This document shows, in pieces, positions 2,283 through 57,063 of a stretch of 64,000 nt of DNA. The position numbers and the translations under genes were made by a program. This DNA comes from Nemertoderma westbladi. Lineage: Eukaryota; Animalia; Xenacoelomorpha. Below the pieces are notes generated by a model that ran no database searches, was not told the origin of the DNA, and was given only the letters and a program-made list of their open reading frames with translations. The stretch spans positions 51,096 through 115,095 of the forward strand of contig JAUCBJ010007542.1 of NCBI GenBank assembly GCA_032718475.1, in the 5' to 3' direction. How positions within the stretch are numbered: the first letter of the stretch is position 1; each line of letters starts with the position of its first letter.

Positions 2283-4655
2283 ATGAGATCTTCAGAGACT
2301 GCGCGTCTTCACTCAGAGGGTAATTCTTTAACGCCCGTGGAAAAAGTTGAATTACGCGAAGTTAACCGGTCGCCTCAAATACAGAAAAACGTAAAGGCGG
2401 ACATTCCGAGAGACAATCAACAAACAAACTGCTTGCGAAGACTGCTGAAAGATCATAAGAAAAAACTTATATCCGCAGGTGTCATATGTTTTCTCGTATC
2501 TCTTGCTGTCATATTACTAAGCATGCTGCTACCTGGGGCACCAGAGTCGGCACTACCACCACCACCACCACCACCCACCACCATTACAGCACCACCACCC
2601 ACCACCACTACAGCACAACCACCCACCACAACTACCAAGGCAGTATTCCCATGTGCCGGTAATTCCGTTTCTAATAAACCTGCTTCTTTTTTAAACAACG
2701 ACGTGATCTGCGACGGTGGTGATCTTATAATACAGTTTCGAGACGAGTCATCTTCCACTGATTTCAATAAAGATTGGGATTCTTATGAAAAAGGTTTTGG
2801 TGACATGAGTGGAAAAGGTTACTGGCTCGGGTTAGAAACAACTCATCTAATAACAACAGAATGGGAATGTGATCTAAAGATTAAATTTAAGGTATTACTT
2901 GGCCTGCCCCCTCCTCTCATTTATACAAAAAATTTCAGATCATGTTTTCAGTTTTCTTATACCGTAGATTAATGTTAACCAACTTTATAATATTTAATTT
3001 TATGTTAGCTAAGTCATTATTGATACCTTTTTTGGTACTACTATGTTATGGGTACCCACTTTTTGACCAATTTTTTTCTTATGAAAATGGCTTTTATTAT
3101 GAGGTTTTTTGTTCTAGAACTAATATTTGACCTTCTGACAGTTAGTTGGTAGCTATAAATTTTTATTTTCGTGTTAGCTAGTACTTTTTATTAGCTAGTT
3201 AAAAAAATAAAAAATATAATTTAATCCTCAATTACATTTATGTGGAATAATTTATGAGTAATGGTAGCTAGTAATTTGAATTTTTTAGCTAGGGGGTTAT
3301 AGCTAGTCATAATTATTTACTAGCTAGTTTTTTTATGTGCTGTAAAAATACAGTTAATATTATTCATGTTGTCAATCAAGTTGTGTAAATGTAAATATAA
3401 AATTATGTATATTTTTTATTACACTCAGTCAGAAATATAATATGTAATTTTAAAAACAGTAGCTACCTTAAAAAAAACACTAGCTACCATAAAAAAAACA
3501 ATAGCTATCGTCTCTAAGGAGATGAAATTTATGTTCTAAAAGAAAAACCCTCATGATAATAGCTATTATAATGGTCAAATAATTGGTCAAAAAGTGGGTA
3601 CCCATAACATAGTAGTACCGGTACCCCTTTTTTTTCATGCACTTTAATCAATTAAAAAAACAATCTACTTAAATCACTAGCTACCCTAAATATTAGTAAT
3701 TATAGTTAGTAATTTAATCTATAAATACTGTATATACAGTACTGTATTAAATCTACGGTGGCTGATCTTTGCCAATTAATTAATTTTTCTATTTTTTTCG
3801 GAAGTTCTCAATGACGTCATAATTTATGGTCGACAGTGGTGAGAGGAAATGCGACTGCAGTCCTCGGCACCTTCCCCTCTAACAGAAATCTAGACGTGAT
3901 TTTCTTACTTTAAATTGTAAACCACATGTGTCGAGGTGCCGAAAAGGGCACTAGTGTATATTGTGCACACCCCCCCCCCCCCCCCCCCCCCCCCTCCCCT
4001 CAAATTTTGTATACTAGCTAGTTTTTGTTACTTTTACTTATAATTGTTCTAGAACATATAATCTATTCATTTAATATAACAATTTTGTTCTATAACAAAT
4101 ATTTTTTGTTCTAGAACCAAAAATAGAAAAAACTAGTTAATTTGTTTATATTTACTAGTAATTGTTTTTAACTCTTACTAATCAAACATTATTATTTTTT
4201 TTCATTTACATGTTATTCAAAAAACCTAAAGAAAAACTCTAAATAATTAAACTCTCAATTACTAATAAAACTTTCAATAAATTGGGGAGGGAGGCATGCC
4301 AAGTAATACCGAATTAACAATTTAGTCTTCGAATTCTATTTGGCATGCCACATATAAGAATGTAAAGATAGGTTCAGGAGAAACAAATTACACGTTAATT
4401 TACGGAACATTTGGAATTTTCCAAAACATGAATAATGAAATGGCCGCTGCTAATGGTTCGCAGTTCTCTACTAAAGACGCAGATCATGATGATTCCGCCG
4501 ACACCTCGTTGGCTAGAGAGCGGACCGGCGGTTGGTGGCATACCACGGATTCCAAGACGAACCTCAATGGGGATTATCAGTCTGTTGAAAGAAACTTTTG
4601 GGGCGAAAAAAAAGTCGTTACATGGTCTACGATGATAATTCGTAACTGCGTTTAA
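2283..4655 (+). CDS. Type II transmembrane fibrinogen-related (FReD) protein, FIBCD1-like architecture, ~312 aa; exons 2283-2891 and 4326-4655
   Basis: Basic residues then a hydrophobic TM (LISAGVICFLVSLAVILLSML) and a Pro/Thr stalk. FReD motifs: IQFR, DFNKDWDSYEKGFG, YWLGLE, FSTKDADHD, GGWW, NLNG. Phase-0 donor AAG|GT at 2892 and phase-0 acceptor TTTAG| at 4325 join KIKFK to SSNSIWHATYKNVKIGSGETNYTL, which fills the missing FReD segment. An upstream exon is not excluded. Confidence 0.85.
2569..2640 (+). repeat. Coding 24-bp x3 tandem repeat (PPPTTITA / PPPTTTTA / QPPTTTTK), mucin-like stalk
   Basis: CCACCACCCACCACC(A)TTACAG-type units are directly visible. Confidence 0.85.
2891..4310. mobile_element. 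Non-autonomous DNA transposon with TIRs, occupying the FReD intron
   Basis: GGTATTACTTGGCCTGCC (2891) versus GGCATGCCAAGTAATACC (ends 4310): 17/18 inverted match. TSD is degenerate. Confidence 0.7.
3034..3619. mobile_element. Nested MITE with 39-bp perfect TIRs (GG-start, Merlin-like)
   Basis: GGTACTACTATGTTATGGGTACCCACTTTTTGACCAATT is inverted at 3581-3619 and extends imperfectly to ~90 bp. CCTTTTTT occurs on both flanks, with the right copy offset by GGTACC. Confidence 0.85.
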
Positions 4656-5321
4656 TTAAATGAATAGGAATACTGTTTGTTAAACGTACCTTTTAATTGT
4701 TTAAAACCGGGAATTTAATTTTGAAGCTCCCACTATAGCCTTTATAATGTTATTGTTACCGGTAATGTAAATTGGTTTTTTACTCTCCATCTTCGGTGTA
4801 CCTTACACGATACTACTTCGCCCTGTCGACACCCTCTGCTATTTTTTGCAATATATCTAATGTTTAGTTCAGAGCCCAACATGTATTTTTCGTGCGGGCA
4901 CCAAAATTGACTGCCACACGAAATTTTCAAAATTGATTGTTTCGAAATTATTATTATCTGACCTATATTCTCGCGATTTATAGGTTTTCTATTATCGCGA
5001 ATTGATAGGATTTAATATAATAATATACACCCGGGGTAAATTGAAACTGCTAAAATAAGCAACTGTAAAAGGCCGCACTATTAGTAAAATATGTAAAGTT
5101 AGTTATATAAAAAAATAAATATTAATTTAATTATAAAAGTTGATTAGTGTAGGCCTATTTTGCGGTTTGCTAGTTTGCGGATAACGAAGGGCTGCAGGGG
5201 CATGCCAGGGCATGGTACAGTAGAGGTTGTCACAGCGGTGCGAGCAGAAACTGCTTACACACTCTGAGGTTCTCGTATGGAATGGCTGGCGGTTGCAGCA
5301 TAGTTTATGATGGAACCCATG

Positions 5322-5707
5322 CACAGTGGTCCAGATGCGGCCAAAAGTCCCAAAAAAATGTTTTATTAAAATTTAATTTTAACCAACACAAAATGTTCAC
5401 AAGATCCGAGCAACCAGACGACATTTTTTTTTTTCATGTTTTTGAAAATTTCTTCCAAAACTGACCAAAATTACTTGAAATTTTCACATTTTGAAAAAAA
5501 AATAACATTTTATGTGTAATTTGTTTTTTTTATAAAATCAGAACAAGACGTCGGAATCGCAAATTTTTTTGTGCACATTATCTACTCATGAAGCTGAACG
5601 TTAATATGGACGTTTTTACATCATTCACTCAAAGGCAGAGTATTTGCACAAGATAACACCATATTTTTCTGTAAAAACTACCGGCTTTTTAAATTTAGGA
5701 TGCTAGA
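5322..5707 (+). mobile_element. Probable Transib-like DNA transposon left end, truncated at the LTR
   Basis: Starts CACAGTG followed by AT-rich subterminal-type sequence; no partner end found. Confidence 0.4.
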
Positions 5708-6753
5708 TGTTCGCGCTTTTAGACCTTTTAGCAGATAACCTGCCAATTTAAATGTCCCTTTAATTATAAATCGACTTTTGCCCTTACCTATTACATGGTG
5801 TACTGAATTTACATCCGCCGAAGCCAGTCCGTGCGCGGCGTATGACCCATGGATTAGGGTTCCCTAGAAAGTTATTGCGGTTTAGGCTGCTTTGTATTAT
5901 TCGATTGATCGCTACTATATAATCTCCGACAACTATATTTACTTTCGAGGAAATATTAGCAGTTCCTTTGGGACGTGGCGCTTTAAGTATAAAACAGAGT
6001 TATGACTTACACTAATCACAACTAGATGGCTATAGAATCTCGTAAATAGCGCATTCTTTAGGAAATGCTTTATTAACCCTCACACTACTTCACACTAATT
6101 CACACTAATTTGCCGATCGTCACTGATTTTGATCATATATAAGGAGGATTGCAACTGACACATGTAGGGATTATGAAACAGCATTTAATTCACACAAAAA
6201 CCACTATAATTTGAGTCGCAGTTGCTACCAGTAGACCCTTCTGCTTACCTCAGTAATTAAAAAAGTTGAGGGGTTTACGATTATTTATCGGTATTCTCCA
6301 AATATAACATCCATTAATATAAACAGCAATTAACAACAATATAAACAGCATTAAGACAGTGCGGTGAACAGAGTCAGTATGTGTTGATGTGATGCGGTTT
6401 GTGCCGATGATAATAGATTTACGTTCTTATAACTCTAGCCATCAGATGTTCTTTGGGCAAAGTCTGAAACGTCTGGACTTAGGGCTGAATCCAGAATGGA
6501 ATAGGATTCTCAGAAAAACTGCCGCATTACACCATTTTCTATAGGGCTCTATTGGCATAACAGGGAAGGTTGCTCTGATTGGCTAAAAATATGTCCAAAC
6601 AAAGAAACCTCCACATACACAAAGAATCAGCTGACAGATTTTGTCATCTCAGTTTATTTTCTGACAGAAGCGTAGCTGAACAATTCTCGGCCTTTTTAGA
6701 GTATTCAGCGCATTGTGTAAAAATAATTTGTTATGTCCGCAAAAGCTTTTACA
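5708..6753 (-). mobile_element. ~1.05 kb LTR (TGTAAAAG...GAACA), inferred 3' LTR of a BEL/Pao element
   Basis: TG...CA ends on the minus strand, CCAAT boxes (plus-strand ATTGG at ~6551 and 6578) and minus-strand AATAAA at 6069-6074. The U5 end 5707-5763 matches 36481-36537 at 54/57. The U3 start matches ~48170-48231. Confidence 0.7.
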
Positions 6754-6830
6754 CTGCTCCCAGAAAATGGGATTCAAGTCTATAAAATATAAAAATCACA
6801 GTTTCTAATATATAAAAATACTCTAAACTA

Positions 6831-9800
6831 TCAGTCCTTCTTTCGCAAACGGCGTTTACGAAGTTTTTTAAGACTAGTGAGAGTCTTTTTCTCTTTGGGG
6901 CGAGCCACTTTACTAGGAGGGCTATAACTCCTGGGGGAAGGGTGCAATACAATTGCATCAGAAGGTTTTGGATTACGGTCGTTGTATCCGCCGGTCAAGG
7001 TACCCGGTTGATCGATGTCGACATCGGTGGATCGAGGGCGAACAACCTTTAGAGCTCGTTTCAGGATGGCAGCTCTTACTGATCCTTGATGGGTTGTTTG
7101 CACGACAGCGGTAGGTTGACCGTGTGTAGTGAAAAATTTCCTCGGTTTGATTGTTCTCTCTAATTCGCGTTCTCTGGCTTTATATTCATATGGTCGTCTA
7201 TGAACTTCTTGTAACTCAGGATGCGAGTTTATGAACAAGTCACCATATTCAGGATCTTGGCGGATAAAGTTGATCAAGTTGTAGGAATCCGGGTTATTGG
7301 GATTGATATTCCTCAGATATTTGCGAACATATTTGGCTGAAATGTTCTCGCCAACACGTTTCATCAGTTTGTAACTGGGGGTGCGAGATTTTTGTTCAAT
7401 GGAGGAAAAGAGGTATGGGTGAAACGCATAAACTCCTTCATATGCACGTCTTGGATAGTATTGGTGACGTGATTCGCAATGGAGATCCGCATTAGCTTCC
7501 CAAGATCTGATGTAACGCAAGGTAACTATTTTGTCTATGCTTTCTAGATCTCGATTGAAAGGGCAATCGAAACTTGCATGTCCTTTGAATTGACAGTGGT
7601 GACATTGAGTCATAAATTGAGGGCAAACTGCGAAAATATGTAAATTGTTGAGTCTACAATAAGCACAATCAAGCAAGCAAACAGTCGGCCGAAGCCGGAG
7701 GCGACCCGAAGGCTCCTCTTTTGATAGCTGCTACCCGAGGGTAGGGGTGGGCGCTACTCCTATCCCAAGATTTGCTCCCAGTTATTTAACTGGTTCTCAT
7801 TTTATCGACCCCAGTGGATGAAAGGCTGAGTGGACCCTGGCGGGGCTGAACCTACAACCATTAGATTGCAGGCCCGGCGCTCAACCAACTGAGCTACCCC
7901 GCCTTTTAATATATATATATATTAGCACAATAAATCTCCATAATAGGTTGGTCTTTAAAGTAGGAGCAGGGTTTGCTGTAGTCCATTGGGGTAAAGTGAT
8001 CCCGTGATGCACATAATCGGCAACGTTTCCTAGAAATGTAATTGGCATGTCGATAATCATATGCCGTGAGACATTGTGGACCTTGATACCATTCCAACAC
8101 ATAATCATTATTGCTACTCCTGGACACTGCAGGTTGAATTTCTTCAGATTCCAAGCAAATTGGTTCTTCTTCAACTTGCATAGCTGCGATAGATGTAGCT
8201 GTTTTCTCAAGGGAACCCACTGTTTGAACTTCCACGATAGAATAACCCGTGGGGATTCGGGGTCTTTGTATGACAGATGAATGTAGATTCTGTATACAAA
8301 CGTCCTTAAAAATGGCAAATCCAGCGCTGTCCAACTTCTCAGCAGCGGAATCTATCAGGCTGAGTTTGGTCAAAGCACGGTCTTTAAACTGACTGTCAAT
8401 GTTACGGAACGGAGTCAGAAAGCGCCTGAAGCATTTGAATCGGATGAATTTATTGTGTTCATCTAACTTAGCGAGTTTAGTTCCAAGCACTAAGGGATGA
8501 GTGCTTATAGTTCGACTGCACACATCGGCTAGCCAACCGGCAAGTGCGGCGTTCTCGAAGATGGTATATATAGCTAATGAGGGACGGAGTGGAACACTCA
8601 TAAAGCTATAAACGACTCCAGGTGCTGTTAATGGTCCGTCAAAATATAATCGAGAATAATGGTCGCCATATATTTGTTGATAACTGACAGGATTTCCAAC
8701 TTTAAAATTCCATCCGTATTCTTGGAAGGCAAGATGTCCGATAGAGGTTCTTTGTACTTTATTGATTCCGGTCAGTGTATTGGCATACATAGTTCGGAAG
8801 AAACTTCGGCCTTCTGCCCATGGTGCTATCAGTTGGGTATCTACGAAAGGATATGGGATATTCTCCATATTTCTAAAGTCATTATGGAGATCTCCATAAA
8901 GTGCTGAACCGATTTTAATTATTCTCTCAACAAACAGCATCTCGAGGACTGGCTGGGGTAGCATAGATCCATCTATACCCATGGCCGGTTTGCACTCGGT
9001 ATCGGTAACATAATGCTGCGCGAGTTCGAATTGTCCATGTCGGAGTTTCTTTTGTATCTCTGTGAGAGTCTCAAAAGAATAATCGATCACGTCGGAACAT
9101 GCTCGAGTAAAAACATGGGTAGAACCAGCTAATCCTCGTATGTGTATCATTCGCGTAGTTCCTAGTTCTCCAAGAGTAACACTAACTTCCTTATCGTAAG
9201 TAACAACTCCGTACATTTCGATAACCTTAAGACTTTCGTTCCACTCTTTGGTGGTGTTTTATATGGTCATACCCACCGGATGCCATAATGTCGCGCATTC
9301 GCTGGCGTTAGGTAAATCGCTATACTTCAAATAATGTGTAGTATGTGTAGCTTCATCTCCGTATCGCTGTATTCTTTCTTCTTCAAATAATACATCGAGA
9401 TTCCAATGGACTAATCGAGTTTTAATGAATCCATCGAGATTATACGGAGGTATTACGTCCTTTTCTATTCTTGAAACATTATAAGGTTTTCTGAATGAGT
9501 TTACTTCAACCAATTGATCTAAATGTTTTTGTAGTTGTTCAAGTTCGACAAGATCGAGGGGATTTATCAATGGTAGAAACTTTAAACTATGTGTAGGATC
9601 TTCTGGTTTCGCCATATAATATTGAGTTAAATGGACATAATAGGGGTGATCTTTGATGCCGTAAAATGAGTTTGGTAAAGGTCTAGCGCGTAGGTTAACC
9701 TCGTGTACCATACGACGGACAAGATCCGCTCGATTGTCCGGAGGTTCAACGAGTATACCGTCGACACGTGCAGCCTCGATTGGCGGACGTTGTAACATAG

Positions 9801-11573
9801 GAGCGTCAGCGATAAGATCTCTAGATCTTAAGTTAATATCAACCAGTTGAGGTTGTGCTGTCGCAAAGAGTTTATCTCCGAAATGGGGAACCATCGAAGG
9901 ATGAATGATGCTTTTGGAATAGAGATCAGTCATAAGTATTTGAGCTTCTGGTTGAGCTAAAGCCGCTTCTTCTCTCTCATCCATTTCGATATGCTTCTCC
10001 TCGATCTGATTCTCCTCCACTTGTCGTTGAAAGCGTTCGTCTAAGAACTCTTGTAGAGAGTATGTACGTCCAAGTTCGATATCTTCCTCAAGATTCTCGA
10101 ACTGGGGTAAAGCTAATTCTTTTACCGCTTGGACTTGTTGTTGCAATTTACGTTTGTCTAAACAATAGTAGGTTCCATTTCCGATCTTTTGTCGAATCGC
10201 GTCTAATGCGTTTCGTATAACACTTTCCTCCACCTCGGTGACAGGTAGTATCGGAGTTAAACTGGTACGATTATACGGGTTGAACGGAGATATTAGATGT
10301 CCGCATCCCAATCTGGCTAGGTAGGATGGGCGAATATCTAGAGAGCCCACAAGTGGAGTGCCACTGACTATTTGTTTGGGTAACACTAGGTCTTTGAACA
10401 ATGAGTACAACTTAGGAGGATCCATCATACTATTAGGATCGAGAGTCTGAGGTCGCACCAGGGAATGAGGAGGTCGACCGAGTATTCTGGAACTCTGATC
10501 ATAGGTTTACTTAAGGATTGTTTGAGTCGAGCGAGCGTAGGTGGTACGTCGAACAAGTTTTGCTCAAAACTCCCGTAAGTATAGCGAGTAAAACTGTGTT
10601 TAGCGCAACGTCTCTGCAGATATTTATGTCTTTCCGTTTGTTGATTGGGTCTAGGGCATTCATCGCAGTAATACCAAAGACGCACGTCTTGTAAGGGAAA
10701 CGCTGGTGATCTTTCTCCAGTTTTACAATATTCCTCCATCTGTTCGAAGCTATCCGGTACAACAGGTAGCGGTCGATCGGCGGTAAGATACATCATAGTA
10801 AAATAGAGTCGTTTAAGTTGCATCATAGGGTTATGATGTATACCTTGAGGATATCGAGTTTCTAGATTTTGTGGACTAGCTACATTGAGATAAGTTTCTC
10901 TCAAGAATTTTAAATATTTGTTAAAGTCACCATGTTTGTCCGGTTCTTCAACATCTTATCTTTCGAGTCGGTTTCGAATATCATTTTCATGTTCAATTCT
11001 CAGTTTATCATTCCGAATTCGCTGGGCATGATATTTAAATAGAATCATTTCCTTTTCGGTGTCTACATCGTCAGTATCGTGTAAATCAATAGGATGACCA
11101 GTAGTTAAGAAGTCCATATACGTACCATTACGATGCGTATAGCGAGCGGTGAATTTTCTATAGTCCAATTCATGCTTAAGCTGTTCCTTTGACATTGGCG
11201 GTTCGATATAACAGCCATCGTCTTCCATCGTGTGTTGACTCGCGTCACCGCTTATCAAACTATCAACAAACGCTTGCAGTGGTAGGGTATATCGCTCTCT
11301 GATACCAAGATCATCTTCTATCAACTCAGTCATAGCTGCTATGAGTTTATCGATATTATAGCTATTAAGGCTAGCGGGCATCGCTGCCTTCCCCTCTTTT
11401 GCCCCGGACAGCCCTGAGATCTTCAGCGCTGATGTACTGTTGTCGTCGCTGTGCCCCTCGCCAACGTAGTAGCCACACAACGAAAACAATAACCAGCGCG
11501 AGTCACTCCACTGTCCATCCCAAGGGCTCGAATACACTGGAGGTACTTGATACTGATGTAGGGTAACTTTCAC
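6831..11573 (-). pseudogene. Disrupted ~1,490-codon accessory ORF: unknown N-terminal region + DnaQ/DEDDy-like 3'-5' exonuclease + 3 CCHC-type zinc knuckles + basic tail
   Basis: In-frame TAA at 10956-10958 and 9259-9261 with open codons continuing, a frameshift near 10460, and a SINE at 7670-7923. Motifs: ExoI VVTYDKE; ExoII LEMLFVERIIKIGSALYGD...FVDTQ; ExoIII-like PL..SLAIYTIFEN. Knuckles: CRLC..H..C, CAYC..H..C, CHHC..GH..C. Confidence 0.8.
7670..7923 (-). mobile_element. tRNA-derived SINE with 8-bp TSD (AGCACAAT at 7662-7669 and 7924-7931)
   Basis: Head GGCGGGGTAGCTCAGTTGG...GGTTCAGCCC (A/B boxes), central CCACTCAGCCTTTCATCC...GGTCGATAAAATGAG domain of the kind seen in metazoan SINEs, and (TTGC)n tail. 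Confidence 0.9.
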
Positions 11574-11911
11574 AATTACGACTCGCTACTGTAAACACAC
11601 TTTAGTAGTAACATTCACCTATAAATACACAAATTCCACATTCCTGCCACAATTTGTACAAATTAGAGCCATTTGTCCATTAGTCAGATGCCTTCCAGAA
11701 CGCCACATTATTATTATGTATCCTTAGATACTATCAAGGTGTTATTTATTACGCATGCTATTCAATGGGGTAAGCTTTCTATTGTTCTTTTAAATCACTT
11801 CTAATTCTAGCATGGTTGATACTATGGTGACATTATGCAAAGCTAGCGGTAGAATTAGGGTATTTCTCATTAAAAACAGATCTGGGATGCTATTTAATAG
11901 TGACTCTTTAA

Positions 11912-12105
11912 CCCTATTAAACCCGGGGGGGGGGGGGTCAATATGACCCCCCCCCCCCCCCCGTGGTTTTTTTATTATAATTCTGAAATAAACGCAGTTG
12001 GGAATCTGAAATTTTATCACTTTTCCTAAAAATCTATTGTCTTCATGGTAGTGAAAACCGTTTTCAAAAATATTGGGTACTTTTCGAGTTATAGCACCAT
12101 TTATG
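11912..12105 (+). mobile_element. piggyBac-type MITE, left end
   Basis: TTAA|CCCTATTAAACCCGGGG...GTCAATATGACCCC, the same start as the complete copy at 57064. Confidence 0.85.
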
Positions 12106-12680
12106 ATTTCCTGCAACCCATGATATTGCTTTTGCGCCGCTGTGCTTTGCAAAATCTCCCACGCAGTGGTGCGAATAGTTTAATATATAATAGGATAAAG
12201 TGTCTCGTCTTGCGAGACATTTAATTATAATTACTAAAGTAAATTATCTATATTTGCAAAGGGTGAGGGTTTAACAGACCCAGCGCAGAATTAACACGGT
12301 TAATAAGGCGACCCCACCCAAGCAAAAGCAATACCAATCAATATGGCAGTGCAACGGCATCCAGCTTTTGGTATCACTATTTTGTGTGATACATGATACA
12401 ATGTGAAATAAATTCGAGGGCTTTGCACAAGTTAAGTTTATACGTACCGGTACTGTAGTGGATAATTTGTTAATTACGTTCTGCTCCTTTGTTCAATAAA
12501 GTCTACAAATATTTCTAAAACGGAAATATTTACTCATGCAAACTACCATTATTAAAAAGAATGCGAACAAAGTATAATGCATTAATAAATGAACCTTCAT
12601 TTTCAAGTATAAAATCGTAAACACAGAGATATAATATGTATCGTATATAGAATATGCAAATTGAGCAATGAAAGTTTGAT

Positions 12681-13561
12681 TTATATAGATGCTGGTCGAA
12701 TATATTTCAGAAATGCATTTGAAGACCAGCGCCCTTTTGCTCTGATTTGGGCATCAGATAAACCTTCACGTGCTGCCTCAGTGGCCGCCCCTATCCGGAA
12801 GCTATGTGATTTGTAAACATTCGGAGATAAGTTAAGAAAATTGAAAACTTTGTTCATAATTGCAATGAACTGGGGGCGGTAGGCAAGCCGGAGGCCCAAA
12901 TAAAAAATTGGCTGTGCTTGCTATTAGAAGGGCGTAATTTAATATATTCATAAACAGAAGAAATTGCAAGTTCTGATTCGTTTTTGTTTATGTGGACACG
13001 TACTGGGGTATATGGTGGTTTTTGGTATTTATGGCGTCTAATTGTGATCGTAACATGATTAAGGGCCCATTCAACATTGCTAATGCTCAAAATCCATTTC
13101 CTCGGTATACCTGGTTTTGGAGTAAATTCTCCAACACGTAGGAAACCATAAAAAGCTACTAAAAACATACATTTAATGACGTATTGTGCATAAATATCTT
13201 GATAAATAACTTGAACAGCGTTTAACATGCGGTTTAGGATTGCTTTCGTAATTGGTAAATGGGAATCTCCAACCATGTTATTTTTACCCAATCCAATCAG
13301 TGCCCTCGTAACCAAGAACGCCTTCGTTGGGTCAGCAATATTCAATAACCGATGTGGGAGAGCTATCGCAGACATGTGGTTAGAAATTGTGGATCTTGAC
13401 AATTTCTGAGAGTCTAAATACGCAATGAAACATCCCAAAACAGTTGGGTCAAGTGGTAACACGAATGGGATGTTTAGAACATCTGCGACAAAACAGCGTA
13501 ATTTCTCCCATATTCGAGTATACGAATTAAGAGTTGCTTCTTCCCATGAATGCTCGATCAT
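12681..13561 (-). pseudogene. Tyrosine recombinase of the DIRS/Ngaro element (frameshift near 12890)
   Basis: FYGFLRVGE (R), SHSFRIGAAT (HxxR), GRWSS and KYIR (Y) catalytic set. Confidence 0.92.
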
Positions 13562-13657
13562 CTGTGTGTATCGAAGAATGAGTTCTGAGGTAGCATATGA
13601 TGAGGAATTGCTGATGGATACTTGTTGGCGGTTGGAGTGATGTCCATAAACGATTAT

Positions 13658-15277
13658 TTATACCTGCAAACGAGAAAGAAGTTCTGAACGAACATTCATG
13701 ACACCTGGTACATGATTTGAACGAAAAGGGATATTATGTTTCATTGTAAGAATAACAAGTTTGCGTATAAGAACCATAATTAAGGATTCTTTGGAAGATT
13801 TTTTATTAAGAATGGAGACAAGTCCTTCATTGTCTGTCCTAAATATTATTCGCTTTCCCTTTAATTCAATACCCCAGATATGTATAGCCATTACGATAGG
13901 ATAGAGCTCGAGGAGAGTAATATTTGTACACTCTTTCCACCTAGGAGGCCATTCTCCATAGAACCAATGATTACGAAAGATAGCAGCATATCCCTTCATT
14001 TTGGCTGCGTCAGTGTAAAGTTCCAATGTAGTATTGGAAGACCAATGTCGATTGAGGAACATTGTACATCCGTTATAGTGTAACAGGAAGTTCTCCCAAG
14101 CTATGAGATCTGCTCAAGCCCATGCCTTAAATCTGATTCGGTGATGCATACGTGTAGCAGTCACGGAAAGCTGTATTAAACGTCTAAGAAAGGCTCTACC
14201 GGGAATAACAACCTGACAAGCAAAGTTTAGAAACCCAACAATAGCGAGCAAATCTCGTTTTGTAACCCACTTATTGTGTTTCATACTCTTAATAAGGTCA
14301 AGACCCTTCTCTACTTTATGTTTCGGAAGCCTCTCAACCATTTCATTTGTATCTAACTCGATACCCAGAAAGGTAATGGTTTGGGATGGACCTTCGGTCT
14401 TATGAGAAACTAGAGGGATGTTCGCTTTACTACAGAAATCTATAAAGATGCTGAGCTGTCTTCTGCATTCACCCTTATATCTCGTTGCCATCAGAAAATC
14501 ATCTAGTATGTGTATTAAATTTGGTATTGAGAGCTTAGAACGACCTACCCATTGAATGGCACTCGAGAATCTTTCAAAGATTTTGCAACTTGAGCTAGCT
14601 CCCATTTCCAGGCATTTATCATAATACCATTTATTGTTCCATACTGAACACATTAGATGATAATCTAATTGCGATATAGGTATAAGTCTAAAGGCTGAAC
14701 ATATGTCAGTCTTTGCAAGATAACACCCTGAGCCTAATTCGATAATTATATTAATGGCATCTTCTACATGGTAGTATGTGCAGGTGGAGTCTTCATTTGA
14801 AATATTACTGTTCACTGAAAAGTCATTATATGGGGCAGAGAGATCGTGAATTAAACGAAATTCTGAAGGAGTCTTTTTTGGTCTCCCCGATAATGGGTTA
14901 ACATGGCAGACTAGGAAGGGCTGGTCATCGAATGGCCCAGCCATACGACCAGCTTTTATTTCGTTTTCAAGTTTTTGTGTGACAACATTGGGATTGTTTA
15001 TGGCAGACAATGAATTCCTGGTATACGTAGAAACATTAGGCCCATTATAATCTAAACGAAATCCATCAGTAAAACCAGAGTCTAGATAGGAGAAATCAGT
15101 AGGATTATAACCCGAGAGATAACTCTTTAGTACGTCCCATTTAATTGGTGTGGGGAGTTTGGAGGATTGGTCGACGGTTTGTACCACCTTGCGCATTATG
15201 GTACCTTCCCGTATTCCTGAATGCGGGCATTCTCCGATCCATTCCCCGTCTTTGATAGGGTGCACCTGCAGCTGCAC
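13658..15277 (-). pseudogene. DIRS/Ngaro reverse transcriptase + RNase H (frameshift near 14100)
   Basis: FRLIHDLS, KTDICSAFR, MGASSS, HILDDFL, FLGIELDT; RNase H motifs YTDAA, LLELYPI, TDNEG. Confidence 0.93.
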
Positions 15278-16662
15278 GTCCTCTATACGATGGACCGGAT
15301 CTTTGAAAGGGCCGTTTAGTAATTAGATCAGTAATTGGTTGGGTACACTTCATAAGACGGTGTGTCCCACCACAATTAGGACAAGTGTGATTATAATCAC
15401 AATATATACATTTATCTCCCTTATGGTAGGCATGGCAGTATCTGGTTGGAATGGACATACGACCAGTTTTTCTGGCAGTAGCTGCCATTGCGAGCTCCTG
15501 TATAGGGTTGCCCCAGTGGAACTTCGATGGGTTGTTCTGCTTACAACGCCAGAACTTCTTGTAATAGAGTAGCCATGATCCACCTTTATCCTTGATGTCT
15601 TTAAGGATTGCTGGATATTTCTTCAGCTTCCTACTTTCTTGTGGGAATTTGTCTTCATAAATAGCGGAGAAGATATTCCAAGCAAGTAGCCATTGTTCGA
15701 ATGAGGTTATTTCATTAACACCATTATCTTCCTCGAAATGGCTGTTGACTTGGGTGCTCAGTGGCAGATGTTAAGATAGGAAATCGTCGTTTTGATTTTA
15801 CCACTACTGGGTCACTCAACAATGATGCGAGATCTATAAATTTATGATTCCAGATCTTCTCCTTTATATCTAAAGGGACATATGCATCTACCTCTACAAA
15901 AGAGCTACACTCACCTGCTAAGGATGTCGACAATGACTGCTCAGCTGCAGGGAAAGTATCTGGCACCTGCGAAATGTTGGATGTTGACACTGCAGGACAT
16001 GCAGGTAGAGTAAGGGTTGTTGGTACTGGTACACCGACTGGTGCCGTAAGTGTAGGAGGAGTAATAACTGAAGCAGCATGAATTGGTGGTGAGGTGTGAT
16101 GAGTAGAAGCTGGTGTTAGACCTAACCCGGACATGTTAGATGGAGGTGCTAGCCCAGAGACTGGGTGTCCAGGTGGAATGGCTCCAGGAAAAACAGGTGG
16201 CATACCCATCCAGTAAGGGTTTATGATTGGGGTATGACCACTTTGGCCCTTTATTATAGGAAGGGATAGGAAGGAAGGGATCTAGGGGACATTGTTACTA
16301 TCACTTTGGCCCTGACTGAATGTATTGGGGTTGGGGAAGGATTGCGGATAATAAAATGGCATGTATGGGTTCCACTGAGGAAAGCTCTGCTGTATTTGTG
16401 GATTAGCAGTAAATTCTGTAGTGGTAGATGGCAAAGGAGCTGTTGGGCCGCCACCGAGTATATGGGCATTGGAAGAAGTGGAGGGTGGGGTTGGCATGGA
16501 ATCACCATCACCAATGTTTATTAGAGACGGGCGATGTGTTGTCCGTGGTGTACTTTTAGAACGCGTTTGGATCACCTTGCTGGAGGTTATAGCAGTTTTC
16601 CGTGCCTTTGACTTTAATCTTGTAGCCATAGAGGTAGACTTCTTCTTTGATGATTGAGACAT
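15141..16662 (-). pseudogene. Ngaro-type gag (fragmented) with C-terminal Cys/His finger
   Basis: S/T/P-rich N-terminus, IKEKIWNHKFIDLASLL, and CHAYHKGDKCIYCDYNHTCPNCGGTHRLMKC overlapping the RT start. Confidence 0.8.
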
Positions 16663-16850
16663 GTTACTGGTTGCTGGTGAGTGTGAGAGATTGTGTATGC
16701 ACAGTTATAGAACTGTGTACCGGTACTGGTATATATATTCCAGCATATGATATGATCATAATACAGTAATAATCTGATTGACATATAGTCCAATAAGCAA
16801 AAACATCAACTATAGAATTACGACATAGCTAGGCCTATATAACATGGGCA

Positions 16851-18533
16851 ATGAACGCTTATTATAAGCAGAGTTATAAGAAAAGTTGTGCAAAGGGGCG
16901 CCTCAAAGCCGATAGTCCTGAAGAACGTGTTGGGAAGTGGAAAAATCACTTCAGCAACTTGCTTGGGCAGCCACCAAACATCGAGGTCAGCCCTACAAGG
17001 AAAATATATGACAAGACACTACCTATAGAAACAGGGGACTTCACACCTGCCGAACTCCAAAGAAGCATTAAAAGCATGTCCAATAATAAAGCGAGTGGAT
17101 TAGATGAAATCCCAGCGGAGGTATGGAAAACCGGAGTGCTAAATAGACCATTATTGAATGTTTGCAACCGGATGTTAAAAGGGGAAAAGCCACCACCAAT
17201 TTGGACTAAAGGTCAACTAAAGCCTCTCCCCAAGAAAGGAGACCTCGGCATACCAACAAACTATCGTGGGATCTGTCTGCTTGTGGTAGCTGCCAAAATA
17301 TACAATAAAATGATTCTATATAGGATTAGGCCTCACATAGAGAAACTACTGCGTAAGAGCCAAAACGGATTTCGACCAAGTAGATCAACAATAGCTCAGA
17401 TACTTGCACTACGGAGACTGATTGAAGGAATTAAGTCAAAGAATCTCCCCGCAGTCATGACTTTTGTGGACTTCAAGAAGGCATTCGACTCCATCCATAG
17501 AGGTAAAATGCTTGAAATCCTAAGAGCTTATGGAATACCAGAAGTAATTGTTGCTGGCATTGGATTGTTATATTGTGACACAGAAGCGCAGGTACTCTCA
17601 CCAGATGGTGAAACTGAGTTTTTCTCAATCCTGGCTGGCGTACTGCAAGGTGACACATTAGCACCATTACTATTTGTAATTGTGCTGGATTACGCAATGA
17701 GGACGGCCACAAAGGGTGAAGATCTGGGATTCACACTTCAAGAACGCAGAAGTAGTAGATATCCGGCAACTACAGTCACAGACACCGACTTTGCGGATGA
17801 CATCGCCCTGCTCTCTAATACGCTAGCAGATGCACAGCTTCTACTAAATAAAGTGGAGAGGGCTGCTAAGGAGGTTGGATTGCATATAAATGCTACCAAG
17901 ACCGAATTCATGACCTTTAATGTTTATGGAAACTTGACAACCATTGATAATAATCAACTAAGGAAGGTCGATGACTTCCAGTACCTTGGATCATGGATAG
18001 AGAGTAGCAAAAAGGACATAGAAGTTAGGAAAGCAAAGGCTTGGGTAGCTCTATCAAAAATGGATACCATCTGGAAATCAGATCTCTCCAGGCACCTGAA
18101 GACTAAGTTCTTTCGAGCCACAGTGGAAAGTGTATTTTTATACGGGGGTGAGACCTGGACACTGACTAAATCACTTGAACAACGAATTGATGGTTGCTAC
18201 ACAAGACTACTAAGGGCAGCCCTAAACATCAGCTGGAGACAACACATGACAAACGCCGAGCTTTATGGTACAATACCACCTGTATCAACCACCCTCCGTG
18301 AACGCAGATTAAGATTCAGTGGGCACTGCTGGCGAAGTAAAGACGAGGTCATACCAGATCTACTTCTCTGGCAACCAACCCATGGAAAGCGTAGTCATGG
18401 ACGACCTGCCATAACATATATAGATCAACTTGAAAGGGATATTGAACTTGGGAGAAACGAAATTGCGACAACTATGGAGAATCGGGAAGCCTGGAAGGAT
18501 CTCATTTCCACTGTCCGAGTTCGCTCGACCTAG
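16851..18533 (+). CDS. RTE-clade reverse transcriptase (5'-truncated; first residues come from flanking DNA)
   Basis: NYRGICL, QNGFR, FVDFKKAFDS, GVLQGD, DFADD, YLGS and the LRFSGHCWRSKDE...GRP C-terminus. Confidence 0.9.
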   Translation: MNAYYKQSYKKSCAKGRLKADSPEERVGKWKNHFSNLLGQPPNIEVSPTRKIYDKTLPIETGDFTPAELQRSIKSMSNNKASGLDEIPAEVWKTGVLNRPLLNVCNRMLKGEKPPPIWTKGQLKPLPKKGDLGIPTNYRGICLLVVAAKIYNKMILYRIRPHIEKLLRKSQNGFRPSRSTIAQILALRRLIEGIKSKNLPAVMTFVDFKKAFDSIHRGKMLEILRAYGIPEVIVAGIGLLYCDTEAQVLSPDGETEFFSILAGVLQGDTLAPLLFVIVLDYAMRTATKGEDLGFTLQERRSSRYPATTVTDTDFADDIALLSNTLADAQLLLNKVERAAKEVGLHINATKTEFMTFNVYGNLTTIDNNQLRKVDDFQYLGSWIESSKKDIEVRKAKAWVALSKMDTIWKSDLSRHLKTKFFRATVESVFLYGGETWTLTKSLEQRIDGCYTRLLRAALNISWRQHMTNAELYGTIPPVSTTLRERRLRFSGHCWRSKDEVIPDLLLWQPTHGKRSHGRPAITYIDQLERDIELGRNEIATTMENREAWKDLISTVRVRST

Positions 18534-18545
18534 TAGTAGTAGTAG
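16875..18545 (+). mobile_element. 5'-truncated RTE-clade LINE with 12-bp TSD TATAAGCAGAGT (16863-16874 and 18546-18557) and (TAG)n tail
   Basis: TSD and tail are directly visible; RT ORF is open. Confidence 0.92.
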
Positions 18546-20675
18546 TATAAGCAGAGTCAGAGAGAGAGTGGGATAATCATCCACTAATTGACAGATGGGA
18601 TGTGCGGCATAATGTATAATATAATAACAGTCCGGTACAATATGTAGGCACAGCGCCCGGACAAGTTCAATTATCGGTACCAACACCAACAGAGCAACAG
18701 ACCAAGTGACTGTGTTTAATGTATAGTGTATAGGTTACTGCTGTATAGGGCTAAATGCAGACATGTGTATGGTGACGCGACAGGTATTATTGTATGGAGG
18801 TAGGCCCCATACCGTTCCCCGTTTCTGCATATGCAACTAGCTTGATACAGGTAGTTATAACATGCACAATATCAGTATATAGGCCTATAATTCTAATAAT
18901 AATAAAGTGGGAATATCATCCACTGGGAGACTGCTGGACTCACTGTACCGGCGATCCAATAATATCAAGTCCAGACATATTGCAGTAGTCTACTGCCATA
19001 ATCTTAGCTAGCTTCTGAGCTTGTGGAACATGGACTTGGTCTAATGAAACTGTGATGGGAATATCATCCATCGGCCCAGCTCAGGTAGGAGGTATATACG
19101 GGTAGCTTAAATATTTACCAAAAATTACTTTATATGTACCGGTACCGGTAATTTGTAACAGTGTCATCAGTTATTAAGGTCGCATGTATTGCTGAATTGG
19201 CATTGAGTTGAGTATATCATTCAATGCACTTGCACTACCGGTATTCAGGTATTTGGTATTGGCAACTGGACCGCATGTACATGGTACATGTGTTAGTCAG
19301 TCTCAGTACAGCAGTGTTGTAGTACTGGAAGCACAGATATAGGTATAAGCCAATTCCAGAATTCACTAATTCAATTTATGAACTGCGTTCATTAGGACTA
19401 TGCTGCTATGTGGATTGCAGAATTGTGTTATATCGGTACTTGTAGTCATATTCATAATAGCATAAAACTACTCTCTGATAGTAGGCTACTTACACACCAT
19501 ACACAATACTGTAAGATAGTACCCAGCTGCCGGGTAGGTACTGTACCGTCTGACCGTACCGGTACAGGGTACACAGTTAGTCATTACAGGTACTGCATTA
19601 GTCAGTTAGTGTAAGCGGGTATATCATCCACTTCTCACTTCTGCAATTATTAATTTGAGATTTTAACAAAAATCAAAATTGTTGGCTGATTGGCCAAACA
19701 ATTATTCCTATATGTATATTGCATTGGCCTATTTCAGTATTTGTTTATGTCGCGTAGGTTGGTAAGGAACTGTACTGCTGTACAGTGGTACGGATGCCAA
19801 CGGCCTGGTGTACTAAGTGCATAACTCAGTACTGCAGTACCCGGTAACGGACTGGTGCGGTGCCAGGGTGCAGTAGGTCCTGTATACAGCAGTATCGGCA
19901 GATCGGTACTGCATTACTGGGTGAATGGCTGCAGCTGGTATAATTAAATCTATTCCAGTCCAGTAGCAGTACTCTGGTGGCCCGGGTTCCACTGTCCACA
20001 TGGTCAGTGGTCACAATTAGTAGTTTCTTTTATTCTCTTTTTTTTAACCATGCAGTGCAGTGCAGTGTAGCTGGGTAGGTGACCAGACAGCCAGAGGACC
20101 AGAAAATGCATGCTGCCTGTTGCCATACCACACTGTCACGTCACATAGTACTCCTGTACTCAGATAGACCAACTGGCATGGGCCTACTCATATACAGCCA
20201 TAGTGCATAGCACCGCCTGGTTGCCAGCTCAGGCTCTAGGTTCAGAGGTTTAAACGGTACCGTACTGCCATAGGGTAACTGATCTGTTCAGTTCAGCAGT
20301 TCACATTTATTGCATAGTGGGAATATCATCCACTTCCATGTTGTCATGTACTGTGTTACGTAGGCCTACCGGTAGTCATATACCGTATTTCAATATTTAA
20401 AAGATATTTTATTATAAAATTAGAATGTGTACGCAATGTATCTGGAAGTCATAAATTAAATTATACGTTATTTTGATTAACAGATTACTGAATCCAGGTG
20501 CCGTAATGACTGAATACCAGTAATCATTTGTTAGACAAAGAGATTCCAGTGCACATCCTAGAGGATGGTATAGGAACTTGTTAATTGTACATGTTTTGCG
20601 GTATCATAAAATATATTGGGCTCAATGCTTTGCAATATTACCCAATACCCATTTTTTAACCCTACTTTTGGCACT

Positions 20676-20733
20676 TTTTTTGAGACGTTTTTTGAAAATT
20701 AAATTTCATTAAATATGAATTGTAACATCTCTA
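20676..20733 (+). mobile_element. Internal fragment of the piggyBac-type MITE fused to Gypsy gag
   Basis: TTTTGAGACG...GTAACATCTCTAT matches ~57123-57180. Confidence 0.8.
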
Positions 20734-21470
20734 TGAAACTCCCTTCTTTCTGGACCGCGCAACCCGAGGTTTGGTTCAAACAAGTGGAAGCTCAGTTAGA
20801 TTTAAAAGGAATTACGGCAGACCTCACTAAATACAACTATGTAATCCAGGCCCTTGATAACACCGTAGCAACTGAAATTGGTGCATTCATCTTGAACCCA
20901 CCAGAAGCTAACAGATATGAAGCTCTGAAAACTATACTCCTCAAAACTTATGGGCTTACAGAACAACAAAAGGGAGCCAAGTTACTAGCAATCAATGGCC
21001 TGGGTGATCGCCACCCATCTTCTCTACTACGATACAGGTATAGATGCAGGTTAGTTCCTGCTGACACCTACAGGGGATATACATTCCGTAGTCTATTCCT
21101 ACAACATCTACCTGAAACAGTCCGCATAGCCCTCGCCAGAGACCCTCCTACAGACATTGAAGATCTTGCATTTGCCGCTGACTCTATCATAGAGGCCCAA
21201 GGTCCAACTCATTATCGTGGTATAGCTGCAGTAGAAGTTGATGCCATAGGTAGACAACAGAAACACACCCAACAGCGTCAGAGCCAAAGGAATGCACCTC
21301 CCACTCAACTACCTCGTGTAAACCGCCGATCCACCACTCGCTGCGCGAATCACCAGCGTTATGGCACGCATACCTGGGCTTGCTGCACTATGCTCCCTGG
21401 TTCCACTTGCGACATGGCACACATCACAGTACCCAGACCTTCGGGAAACGCCACTGCCGACGCCCAGTAG
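20715..21470 (+). CDS. Gypsy (CsRn1-like) gag with CHCC-type finger
   Basis: KLPSFW...[26 protein letters not shown]; ends SGNATADAQ*. Confidence 0.88.
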
Positions 21471-24400
21471 CCGTCCAGGCCGTCGGCAACAAACTCAAAC
21501 AGAAAGATGGCATGAAAACTATGACAGTCTGGGACCGCAAGACCGGACGTCAGTTTCTTGTCGACTGCGGTGCCGATGAGTCCGTCATCCCAGCATCAAG
21601 ACTCGATCATTCACATACTCAAACTACACCTCTCATTGCTGCTAATGGCTCACGCATCTCAGCATGGGGGACGACAACAATTGCCCTCGAACTGGGCAAC
21701 CAAACCTTCGTCCAACGTTTCAACATTGCTGATGTACAACAACCAATCCTTGGTGCAGATTTCTTCATAGCTAATAATCTGGCCATCGATATGGCCAATC
21801 GGCGTTTAATTGACCTAGAGACATACGCTACAATACCGGCAGGATCAACATCAGTGATAGGAAACATCAATGGGCTCCATAAACCCAGAGAGGATGATGT
21901 CAACCTCGCTTCCATCCTCGATGAGTTCCCTGAACTCCTAATCCCACGTTTCCATGCCTCTGCTCCAAACTTACATGGTGTTGAACACCACCTCCCCACT
22001 AATGGCCCACCCATTTTCGCCCACGCGAGATGTCTTCATGCCGACCAGCTGGAGGTAGCCCAAGCTGAATTTAAGAAAATGGAAGACTTGGGAATCATCC
22101 GTCGCAGCAATTCTGCTTGGGCCACACCACTACATGTTGTACCCAAACCTGATGGTGGTTGGCGCCCATGTGGCGATTACCGACGCCTCAATGCAGCCAC
22201 AAAAGATGACAAATACCCGATACCACATATCGGTGACTTCAACACCAATCTGAATGGGAAAACTATATTCTCAAAGATTGACTTGGCGAAAGGCTACCAT
22301 CAAATCCCTATGACTGAAGCCGATATTTGTAAGACAGCCATTATCACCCCATTTGGCTTGTGGGAATTTCTTCGAATGCCCTTTGGTCTGAAGAATGCGG
22401 CTCAATCGTTTCAACGGCTGATGGATACCATCCTTCGAGGGATTCCATGTATATTCATATATGTGGATGACATCCTGGTAGCTAGTAGCAACCGCACTGA
22501 ACATGCTTCTCACTTGAGAGAGGTTTTCTCGGCACTGTCCCGCAACGGCATGGTCATCCAGCGCCCCAAATGTGTATTCGGTGTCAATGAGCTCACCTTC
22601 CTGGGCCATAAAGTCACTTCAACTGGCATCACCCCCCTACCTGAACGTGTTGAAGCTGTTACTAATTTCCCTGTACCCGTTGACAAACATCAGCTGCAAA
22701 GATTCTTAGGCATGATCAATTATTACCACCGGTTTATGCCCAACCTCGCTGCCCGCCTCCACCCACTCCACAACGCAACTAAAGGGAAAGGCAGACCCAT
22801 TATCTGGACTGAAGCATGTCAATCATCATTCGAGGAAGCTAAATCTGCCCTTGCCAATGCAGCTATGCTACACCATCCCAATCCTAGCTTTAAGTATTCG
22901 GTATCCGTTGATGCCTCGGACATGGCAGTAGGTGGTTCACTAGATCAGCTCGATAACAATGTTTGGCGCCCATTGGCCTTCTTTTCTAAGAAGCTAACCA
23001 ACGCTGAGAAGAAGTACTCTGCCTTCGACAGGGAACTGCTTGCTGCCTACTTAGGAATCAAACATTTCCGGAACTATATCGAAGGACGGCAATTTACATT
23101 GTTTACAGACAATAAGCCCTTAGTTGCTGCAATGACTGGCACCGCTGATCGCACCCCCCGCCAAACTCGCCACCTTTCCTTCATTGCCGAGTTCACTACA
23201 GATGTCCAACACATTAAGGGAACCTCCAATGTCGTAGCAGACACACTATCACGTGCCCCTGTTGAGTCCAATGAGCCCAACACCAGATCAGGTACAACAG
23301 TGTCAGCTATTCTAACTCCTACAATCAAATACGCACAGTTGGCTTCAGACCAGGCTACATCCAAAGAAATCGAAGCTTATCGCACAAGCACTGCTGTCAC
23401 TTCACTCAATCTCGAAGACCTTGCCTATAATGGCTACTCTATCTTATGTGTCACTGCCACTGGAAAGGCCAGACCAGTCATACCTGCCAATTGGACAAAA
23501 CGAATATTTGAGACTATCCATGGCCTTTCTCACACTGGTTACCGTCCCACATACCATGCAATAGCGAAACGATTTGTTTGGCATGGGATGAAATCAGATA
23601 TCCGCAACTGGTGTTGCTCCTGTCACCCGTGTCAAGTCTCTAAGGTCAGCCAACACATACACACCCCCTTAGAATCCCACCCCCCACCGGAACGGCGCTT
23701 TGGATCTCTTCATGTAGACCTTGTGGGGCCCCTTCCCATCTCTGAGAAAATGTGCTACCTGTTTACAATAGTAGATCGCTATACCAGGTGGCCAGAAGCT
23801 ATTCCAATTCCAGACTCCACAACTGAAACTTGCATTCGTGGCTTTCTTCGCACATGGGTGGCACGGTTCGGTATCCCAGGGGACCTCACATCCGACAGAG
23901 GCCCACAGTTCACATCACACCTTTGGGCCGAGTTACAACAAGTATCAGCCAACAACACTACCGCATATCACCCACAAGCCAACGGTATGGTTGAACGATT
24001 TCACCGTCAACTAAAGGCGTCACTTAAGGCGCGCATGACAGGACCCAACTGGATGGACCACCTACCCATGGTTATGCTCGGCATCTGCACAGCCTGGAAG
24101 GAAGACGCAGACAGTTCTCCAGCTGATTTAGTATATGGGACTTCCCTACACATTCCAGGTGAATTCTTCAAGACTGATAGGAACTCAGACCTCCAACCAA
24201 GTTTCTTAAGCGGTCTACAAGATGCCATGCGCTTAGCAAAGCCTCCCCCAACTAATTACCACGGCCAACGTGCAGCATCAGTTCCAGATAACTTAGCATC
24301 AACTGGTTTCGTTTATATACGAGTCGACAGCCACAAACACCCACTTCAGCAACCCTACACTGGCCCCCACCGCATTCTTGGGGTCAACGCCAAGCATTAC

Positions 24401-24661
24401 ACAATAGACTGCAATGGTAAAGCTGTAAACGTATCTATAGACCAGTTAAAAACTGCATACACTGACACTGGTTGCGCAAGCATGACAACACAACGAGCAT
24501 CACCAACAACAATGCGCACTTCTACAACACAAGCGATGGGATCACCTCCTCTTGTTGACTACTCATTGGAACCAGAACCCGACCCCATGTCGTACATACC
24601 CCCCATGTGCCGAACCAGAAGTGGAAGATTAAGTAAACCTCCAACACGTTTGATCTTGTAA
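21380..24661 (+). CDS. Gypsy pol (protease-RT-RNaseH-integrase), uninterrupted; expressed by -1 frameshift
   Basis: FLVDCGA protease, [35 protein letters not shown] RNase H, HHCC, and DLVG/SDRG/ERFH integrase. Confidence 0.96.
21443..21488 (+). promoter_or_regulatory. -1 ribosomal frameshift signal (G GGA AAC + stem-loop)
   Basis: Slippery heptamer at 21443-21449 in the gag frame; TGCCGACG/CGTCGGCA stem about 5 nt downstream; pol is in the -1 frame. Confidence 0.85.
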
Positions 24662-24724
24662 CTCGACTCACTGTTAATTCTCAACTAGAACACATCAATG
24701 ATCATAAACTTTCGTGCCCTCACT

Positions 24725-24887
24725 GGGGGGGGAGTGATGTAGCGTCCACTCGATGGCATACCTATCGTTCGGACACTTAACTCGTTTCCTTGAGTATTAC
24801 GTATTCTAGAACATATAAAACACAACAATGTTTAACAATAATAAAATAGCTCACTAGTACGTTAGTTATTTATATGTGGCATTTACA
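24725..24887 (+). mobile_element. Gypsy PPT (24725-24737) and 150-bp 3' LTR (24738-24887, TGTA...TACA)
   Basis: GGGGGGGGAGTGA|TGTAGCG, TATAAAA at ~24814, AATAAA at ~24840, ends TTTACA. The 5' LTR is absent. Confidence 0.75.
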
Positions 24888-29100: not shown

Positions 29101-29116
29101 TCTAATATTGGGGCGG
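26102..29116. mobile_element. Unclassified ~3 kb non-coding insertion in the BEL1 integrase
   Basis: BEL sequence is contiguous across it by comparison with BEL2 at ~38767. Flanked by CTTTCCCTAGGT / CTTTCTCTCGGT (10/12). Confidence 0.7.
27559..27621 (-). other. tRNA-like Pol III promoter segment (not a functional tRNA)
   Basis: TAGTCTAGTGG A box and GGTTCGAAATCC B-like box; no closing acceptor stem. Confidence 0.55.
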
Positions 29117-37625: not shown

Positions 37626-37754
37626 TTAAATAAAACGATCATAATAATATAAAATTACATAATAAAACGTACATAAAGACAAAATATACAGATAACATAA
37701 ATGGTCCTATGCCCGCTCCCCTAACTAAGAGTCAGTTAGTCTCTAGATGTTCAT

Positions 37755-56720: not shown

Positions 56721-57063
56721 ACAATAGCAGTTAATTTTTAATTAAAAAGTTAATAAAAAAAATTAATGAGTTTCTTATTTAGAATTTGATTTCTATTTTA
56801 TATTTACCAATATCTCAATTTATTTATTATTTCCTGAATCGAAGTAATTATAAAAAGCAATTTAACTTAGAAACCAATAGTAACTCTAACACATGCATCT
56901 GGCCCCTGTTTTACTTAGGCGTAATTGTCAAGGGTCAACTGCTCAGGGGGACCACCGTAGGTAGGGGAAATATAATCCGTATTCATTCTTTAATGCACTA
57001 CACATCTTATCATGATAAAGGACCCCTATAATTAAAAATGTTCATTTTCAGTATACTGTTTAA

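Follow-up and report, generated by a model that had tools for sequence, protein, structure and literature searches.

A dead copy of a highly repeated gene of Nemertoderma westbladi with a probable RNase D-like exonuclease domain and three CCHC knuckles

In a stretch of 64,000 nucleotides from Nemertoderma westbladi (hereafter the window, to which all positions refer), we found a gene that belongs to a highly repeated, constrained family and that is dead in this copy. In the reading that we prefer, and hold with about even confidence, it is an accessory gene of a mobile element, and its RNase D-type domain and CCHC knuckles would handle the RNA of that element.

The gene in the window and its distant relative

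The gene lies on the minus strand, and is decayed and intron-free, with about 1,430 codons from the first methionine (11381) to the stop codon (6831). Every motif quoted in the preliminary description was found on this strand, in the 3' half of the decayed 11381-6831 frame; the limits given there (6831..9270) were too short, and the gene reaches about 2.1 kb further upstream. The copy is broken by two stop codons, one frameshift and one SINE-like insert of 262 bp. The N-terminal part (10475..11381, minus strand) contains an in-frame stop codon (10956-10958) and one CX2C...H...C motif, and a frame break lies near 10475. This part had no family match in Pfam, NCBIfam or PHROGs (a benzoyl-CoA reductase match of 19 bits, with a cutoff of 487, was taken as chance), and seven of the 11 variants listed for it fell on third codon positions. 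The middle part (9262..10475, minus strand) was also without a family match. A stop codon within the first strand of the exonuclease-like domain (9259..9261, minus strand) was regarded as a break in this copy, because the residues on either side align with an open stretch of the relative described below.

A phmmer search against 1,835,955,588 representatives gave one match (E = 7.7e-4), P0002, an ENA protein of 648 amino acids from a 9,449-bp contig and the single member of its cluster. In their exonuclease-like parts the window protein and P0002 were 29% identical over 162 amino acids (pairwise E = 2e-12); the pairwise score was 152.5, compared with 25.7 ± 9.0 (maximum, 57.8) for 300 shuffles, in an alignment with cheap long gaps, and MAFFT misaligned ExoI between the two. 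The homology was regarded as secure, because the exonuclease part and knuckles 2 and 3 match separately and in the same order. P0002 shares with the window gene a D-E-D-Y-E exonuclease-like domain, a linker, three knuckles and a basic tail. It differs in that its frame is open, so that it represents a natural open sequence, and in that the long N-terminal part, the middle part and an insertion of about 40 residues, by which the window domain is longer between ExoI and ExoII, are missing. A homologue search with P0002 returned only P0002 itself among 7,989 sequences, and a search with a profile of the knuckles and C-terminus returned only P0002 among 127. No related loci were found in viral contigs (three scans) or metagenome contigs with scans that detect close relatives only.

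All three of the claimed knuckles are present on the minus strand, but the spacing of the first is atypical. Knuckle 1 (7966..8022; assigned by motif reading) is CX2CX4HX9C, knuckle 2 (7623..7667; assigned by tblastn with P0002) is CX2CX5HX4C, with one residue more than the retroviral CX2CX4HX4C spacing, and knuckle 3 (7563..7604; zf-CCHC_3 match at E = 0.016, below the cutoff) has the retroviral spacing exactly, so that each of the three forms is represented once. When P0002 was compared with the window by tblastn, its residues 520-559 matched positions 7667-7545 (E = 3.7e-4). Knuckles 2 and 3 are two of only five matches to CX2CX3-5HX4C in the six frames of the 64-kb window, the other three being in ORFs at the gag position of other elements. 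The basic C-terminal tail (6837-6869) and the stop codon occupy 6831..6869 (minus strand), and P0002 likewise has a basic end.

The fusion of exonuclease and knuckles, as earlier described, stood in that both belong to one gene, but the frame is not open here, and the 262-bp insert lies between knuckles 1 and 2. The insert (7670..7923, minus strand) is bounded by an 8-bp duplication (7662-7669/7924-7931) and has a tRNA-like head (7838-7903), which scored 21.5 bits with the Rfam tRNA model (E = 0.87, under the gathering score); ARAGORN found no tRNA, and no ribozyme was matched with Rfam at E up to 5. Contigs of 2-3.4 kb in the DNA runs match the insert part only. We read the insert as a SINE because of this weak tRNA-like head and its presence in other contexts; the frame changes between knuckles 1 and 2 because the insert is 262 bp long.

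Residues and fold of the exonuclease-like domain

The exonuclease-like domain (8490..9280, minus strand) is probably of the DEDDy (RNase D-like) 3'-5' type, with a D-E-D-E acidic set and the ExoIII tyrosine. The ExoI D-x-E (9187..9195; D at 9193-9195, E at 9187-9189) aligns with D62/E64 of P0002, which in turn align with D28/E30 of RNase D in hhalign, and the ExoII aspartate (8890..8892) aligns with D130 of P0002 and D85 of RNase D; both of these DEDDy motifs are thus found in the window domain by alignment via P0002. The aspartate of DTQ (8839-8841) was assigned by motif reading. At ExoIII (8554..8568; Y at 8566-8568, E at 8554-8556; Y229/E233 in P0002), glutamate replaces aspartate. The DEDDy signature is described as four acids with a tyrosine in motif III (10.1101/2025.08.03.668247); the strict Y-x3-D of ExoIII is not found, and the window, P0002 and the copy variants listed all have Y-x3-E instead. 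To judge from the alignments, the DEDDy likeness holds although the strict signature fails at this fourth acid, and the glutamate is, in the copies and relative compared, a family trait. Decay as its origin was ruled out, since P0002 shares the glutamate and the variant listed there is silent.

Conservation of the acids among copies, which had been named as a test, was borne out for ExoIII and DTQ: all the listed copy variants at the ExoIII glutamate, the ExoIII tyrosine and the DTQ aspartate are silent (those at 8554 and 8566 being third-position changes). The ExoII aspartate had no variant among the best 40 of 70 in 8520-8980, and ExoI was untouched by the best 40 of 1,458 variants in 5000-13000, which is a weak test.

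For the fold, an alignment of 17 bacterial RNase D/PolA-type exonuclease domains (14 of 40 plasmid sequences and 3 of 80 loci) was used as the reference. The two-sequence profile matched it in local hhalign with a probability of 70% (score, 39.4; E = 4e-5), compared with scores of 13.9 ± 2.6 (maximum, 25.5) for 100 column shuffles and 19.1 for the reversed profile; among several hhalign settings, the column shuffles cover this local one only. With P0002 as match states, the probability was 87% over 175 columns, with ExoI, ExoII, DTQ and ExoIII in register, and in a global run it was 3.5%, with ExoI misplaced. The window domain alone reached 2.4%, and its score (21.9) was about as high as the highest (21.3) among 13 unrelated control slices. 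The exonuclease assignment of the preliminary description is therefore above chance through the P0002 profile, but is unsupported by the window protein by itself.

The check that had been suggested with Pfam and structure prediction gave the domain no direct support: the window protein alone had no match to PF01612, and AlphaFold2 models with one and two sequences had pLDDT values of 35.8 and 33.6. No exonuclease match of the window protein was obtained in Pfam, NCBIfam, PHROGs, the PDB sequence search or the Atlas, nor of the two-sequence profile in PDB, and a homologue search with the window ORF 7909-9258 retained none of 3,870 candidates. P0002 itself scored 11.9 bits with PF01612 (cutoff, 23.6; E = 0.2). 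Its leading Atlas cluster is eukaryotic, with PF01612 in 100% and zf-CCHC in 61%, at a score of 0.86, which is below 0.9, and with 163 shared features, below the guide value of 170. An HRDC domain of the Rrp6/EXOSC10 kind was found neither in the window protein nor in P0002 at E up to 10. As for the likeness to RNase D/WRN/EXD1/Mut-7 that had been noted, it stood for bacterial RNase D, the closest link among those compared.

These low-confidence structure models and the lack of a significant direct match of the window protein are what would be expected if the gene were real and its fold were other than that of an exonuclease, the resemblance being due to chance. Three independent comparisons (our own RNase D HMM, PF01612 on P0002, and hhalign) nevertheless all reach the same stretch from ExoII to DTQ, and ExoI and ExoIII lie at fitting distances, so we consider chance resemblance very improbable. 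The domain has, with high probability on these profile comparisons, the DEDDy (DnaQ/RNase H-like) fold.

Repetition, selection and the carrying element

The gene is carried by a highly repeated unit (5770..11911, minus strand; limits approximate, from contig depth), of which 5801-6334 may be a separate repeat, and the right end is cut by a later insertion. Four DNA runs, drawn from three studies, supplied contigs for comparison with positions 5000-13000 (28,489, 21,609, 13,276 and 729 contigs), and the stretch of 5.8-11.9 kb proved highly repeated in each run. In run X1, the summed contig depth was 4,208-465,986 in the bins of 5801-12208 and 91-132 in the flanking bins (5000-5533 and 12209-13000); such depth does not measure copy number, and the window itself may come from one of the runs. 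Internally deleted copies are indicated by contigs whose joints leave out 2.1-2.9 kb of the gene.

Variants in 8520-8980 were taken from two of the four runs at a likeness of at least 80%, and the best-supported 40 of 70 were considered. Third codon positions accounted for 29 of these 40 (p = 5e-7), and 30 were synonymous, where 23% would be expected without transition bias; among the variants under 90% frequency, 17 of 19 were synonymous. Indels were absent from the variants listed, and all but two of the 16 pieces shown were free of gaps. Among the variants listed for 5000-13000, synonymous changes were 14 of 35 coding ones (five non-coding variants were dropped), this set being mostly positions at which the window copy differs from nearly all others. 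From the synonymous bias in the family and the low bias for this copy, the copy is taken to be dead and the family constrained; the gene family was under purifying selection. Of the earlier assignment to a transposable element, this much is supported: by depth and synonymous bias, the family is both highly repeated and constrained.

The gene is in all likelihood cargo of a mobile element. No reverse transcriptase, integrase or transposase belonging to the repeated unit was found in the window, nor was an LTR pair or any terminal direct or inverted repeat of the unit. The start of a later MITE-like insertion (11903..11982, strand not assigned) truncates the repeat on the upstream side of the gene; it is 86% identical to 57055-57124, and its continuation (20676-20734) is 98% identical to 57123-57181. 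In run X2, 27 contigs run on with other letters past 11911. Given the cut at 11903 and the different continuation of other copies past 11911, an autonomous part may have stood upstream and gone missing from this copy. Of the loose ends of other copies, two motifs were sought in the rest of the window and did not occur there. We put at somewhat less than even the chance that the gene is a retroelement's downstream ORF3, with a gag-pol that once stood upstream of the 11903 cut and is now lost.

The unit may instead be a repeat other than a retroelement, with the gene as cargo of a DNA transposon, as an amplified host gene family or as part of an endogenised large DNA virus. The window shows no linked retroelement enzyme or LTR pair, internally deleted copies are typical of DNA transposons too, and DEDDy domains are carried by Dada DNA transposons (PMC3706591). 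Against a DNA transposon, the approximately 1,430 codons hold no transposase domain; against a virus, the viral contigs had no relatives (three scans of low sensitivity); against a host gene, an intron-free 4.3-kb frame with copies of 80-99% identity is a poor fit; and the knuckles are like nucleocapsid fingers. We consider this group of explanations rather unlikely. Three specific candidates were rejected. An accessory gene of the adjacent DIRS-like element was dismissed, as 12209-13000 is at flank depth and the DIRS-like element is nested in later insertions; a link to the gypsy pol (21254-24661), as it is on the opposite strand with nested insertions between; and a Dada transposase, as no part of the ORF had a transposase match.

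The window is dense in transposable elements (reverse transcriptase, integrase and Pao matches). The MITE-like element (11903-20734), of which another copy lies at 57055-57181, is interrupted between 11982 and 20676 by some 8.7 kb that comprise the DIRS-like element and a non-LTR reverse transcriptase ORF (16833-18533). The decayed DIRS-like element (12680-16700, minus strand) has gag-like ORFs with two Cys/His motifs, reverse transcriptase (14117-15322), RNase H-like (13661-14113) and tyrosine-recombinase-like (12857-13657) regions, and an end (12680-13000) at flank-level depth. A gypsy-type element (20703-24890, plus strand) has an open pol of 1,135 amino acids (protease, reverse transcriptase, RNase H and integrase), a DUF7041 gag and, by eye, a short 3' LTR near 24739-24888, for which no 5' partner was found. 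Two decayed BEL/Pao-type elements (25082-34000 and 37743-43500, minus strand) are about 75-83% alike. A 24-bp tandem repeat with open frames (36848-37332) and a large foldback (57055-61920), whose subrepeats measure 163 bp and whose arms reach 95% complementarity, were also observed. Exons of a fibrinogen C-terminal domain (2253-2972 and 4326-4655, plus strand), with a Thr-rich repeat, probably belong to a host gene. Positions 5800-6330 are highly repeated and non-coding, show TATA-like, TTAGT and AATAAA motifs when read on the minus strand, and are set off from the gene by a stretch of lower depth (6335-6601); they could be an LTR of the element, the LTR-like reading being by eye, or a separate repeat.

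Proposed role and comparison with known systems

In the preferred reading, the three knuckles and the basic tail would bind the RNA of the element, and the DEDDy domain would engage the 3' end of that RNA and trim or guard it within a ribonucleoprotein. The RNA-binding role was proposed because the knuckles of P0002 resemble nucleocapsid fingers (its knuckles 2 and 3 matched retroviral nucleocapsid chains in PDB at E = 1e-4), and RNA rather than DNA was chosen as the substrate from the knuckles. Trimming of 3' ends is the role proposed, as a proposal there too, for the ORF3s of rotifers (PMC5408684).

Whether the domain would form a working two-metal site, with the glutamate as the fourth ligand, we judge from the residues to be about evenly balanced. 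Conserved acids are no proof of cutting, because Egalitarian is described as keeping all five catalytic residues and working by binding (10.1101/2025.08.03.668247). A pseudo-nuclease would be the same gene with the same fold, the site of which would hold RNA 3' ends uncut, and the protein would package or transport the element RNA. The glutamate as the fourth acid in both known members speaks for it, as do the descriptions of Exd1 as inactive and of Egalitarian as independent of its catalytic residues (10.1101/2025.08.03.668247); on the other hand, all four positions are acidic and the tyrosine is retained at about 29% identity, and rotifer ORF3s with an Asp-to-Glu change (DEED) are read as possibly active (PMC5408684). 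We regard a pseudo-nuclease as distinctly less probable than the preferred reading, that is, an RNA-handling accessory protein that may trim.

By analogy with host proteins, the gene product might also act in counter-defence, degrading or sequestering small RNAs and so shielding a very abundant element from silencing. In its favour, the family reaches great abundance, host DEDDy proteins are described as acting in piRNA pathways (PMC5408684; 10.1101/2025.08.03.668247), and an EXD1-like cluster was second in the Atlas for P0002 (score, 0.77). That score, however, falls within the range of shuffled proteins, and in rotifers the reported link between DEDDy ORFs and copy number is not clear-cut (PMC5408684), so this function is improbable. 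No better founded is the boldest form of the idea, in which the gene would stand for a new family of mobile-element proteins, with a DEDE-y site and three nucleocapsid-like knuckles, in distant eukaryotes, which breaks down or sequesters the small RNAs of the host and so leads to very high copy number, in a possibly undescribed class of elements; should the protein prove to target small RNAs, animals would have a silencing suppressor encoded by an element. The preferred reading is still the handling of element RNA.

Among known systems, the E. coli RNase D/PF01612 domains (including those of Egalitarian and Exd1) share with the window domain ExoI D-x-E, the ExoII aspartate, DTQ and PL...Y-x3-acid, in this order. 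The window domain differs from them in its fourth acid (glutamate), in two insertions and in an identity of 17%; knuckles stand in place of the HRDC domains, and the gene is highly repeated whereas theirs is a single host gene. In the Dada DNA transposons of Laccaria and Ectocarpus, a DEDDy domain is described within a transposon gene, and the Dada-U6_DR transposase has 1402 amino acids with Cys-rich motifs at both ends (PMC3706591). The DEDDy domain of Dada sits inside a DDE transposase and keeps DEDD according to that description (PMC3706591), whereas no DDE was detected here.

The nearest parallel in kind is the DEDDy ORF3 described in the LTR retrotransposons Juno1/2 and Vesta2/5 of bdelloid rotifers (PMC5408684); DEDDy cargo is also described in Athena/Terminon retroelements (PMC5408684, PMC6431247, PMC5718144). 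As described for the rotifer ORF3s, a probable RNase D-like exonuclease is here an extra gene of a repeated element, one aspartate of the acidic set is changed to glutamate, and some rotifer ORF3s have a Cys-His-Cys motif. The altered acid is reported to be the third in rotifers (DEED), whereas it is the fourth here (DEDE); three C-terminal knuckles, about 700 codons without a family match before the domain and the lack of a linked pol further distinguish the window gene. This comparison was made with the published description, not with sequences, and does not imply relatedness. In the literature searched, which took in few subscription papers and no Repbase entries, we found no report that combines Y-x3-E and three knuckles in so long an ORF; the rotifer alignments could bear on the point. 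Published accounts of retroelements with exonuclease cargo concern mainly bdelloid rotifers, for which the activity is described as yet to be shown (PMC5408684). A second, very divergent lineage that keeps the ExoIII glutamate, has three knuckles and is clearly under purifying selection suggests that mobile elements retain such nucleases for a real function. The combination of exonuclease and element is thus of a kind known from rotifers, to which the present gene, with its probable DEDDy domain, would add a glutamate variant with three knuckles.
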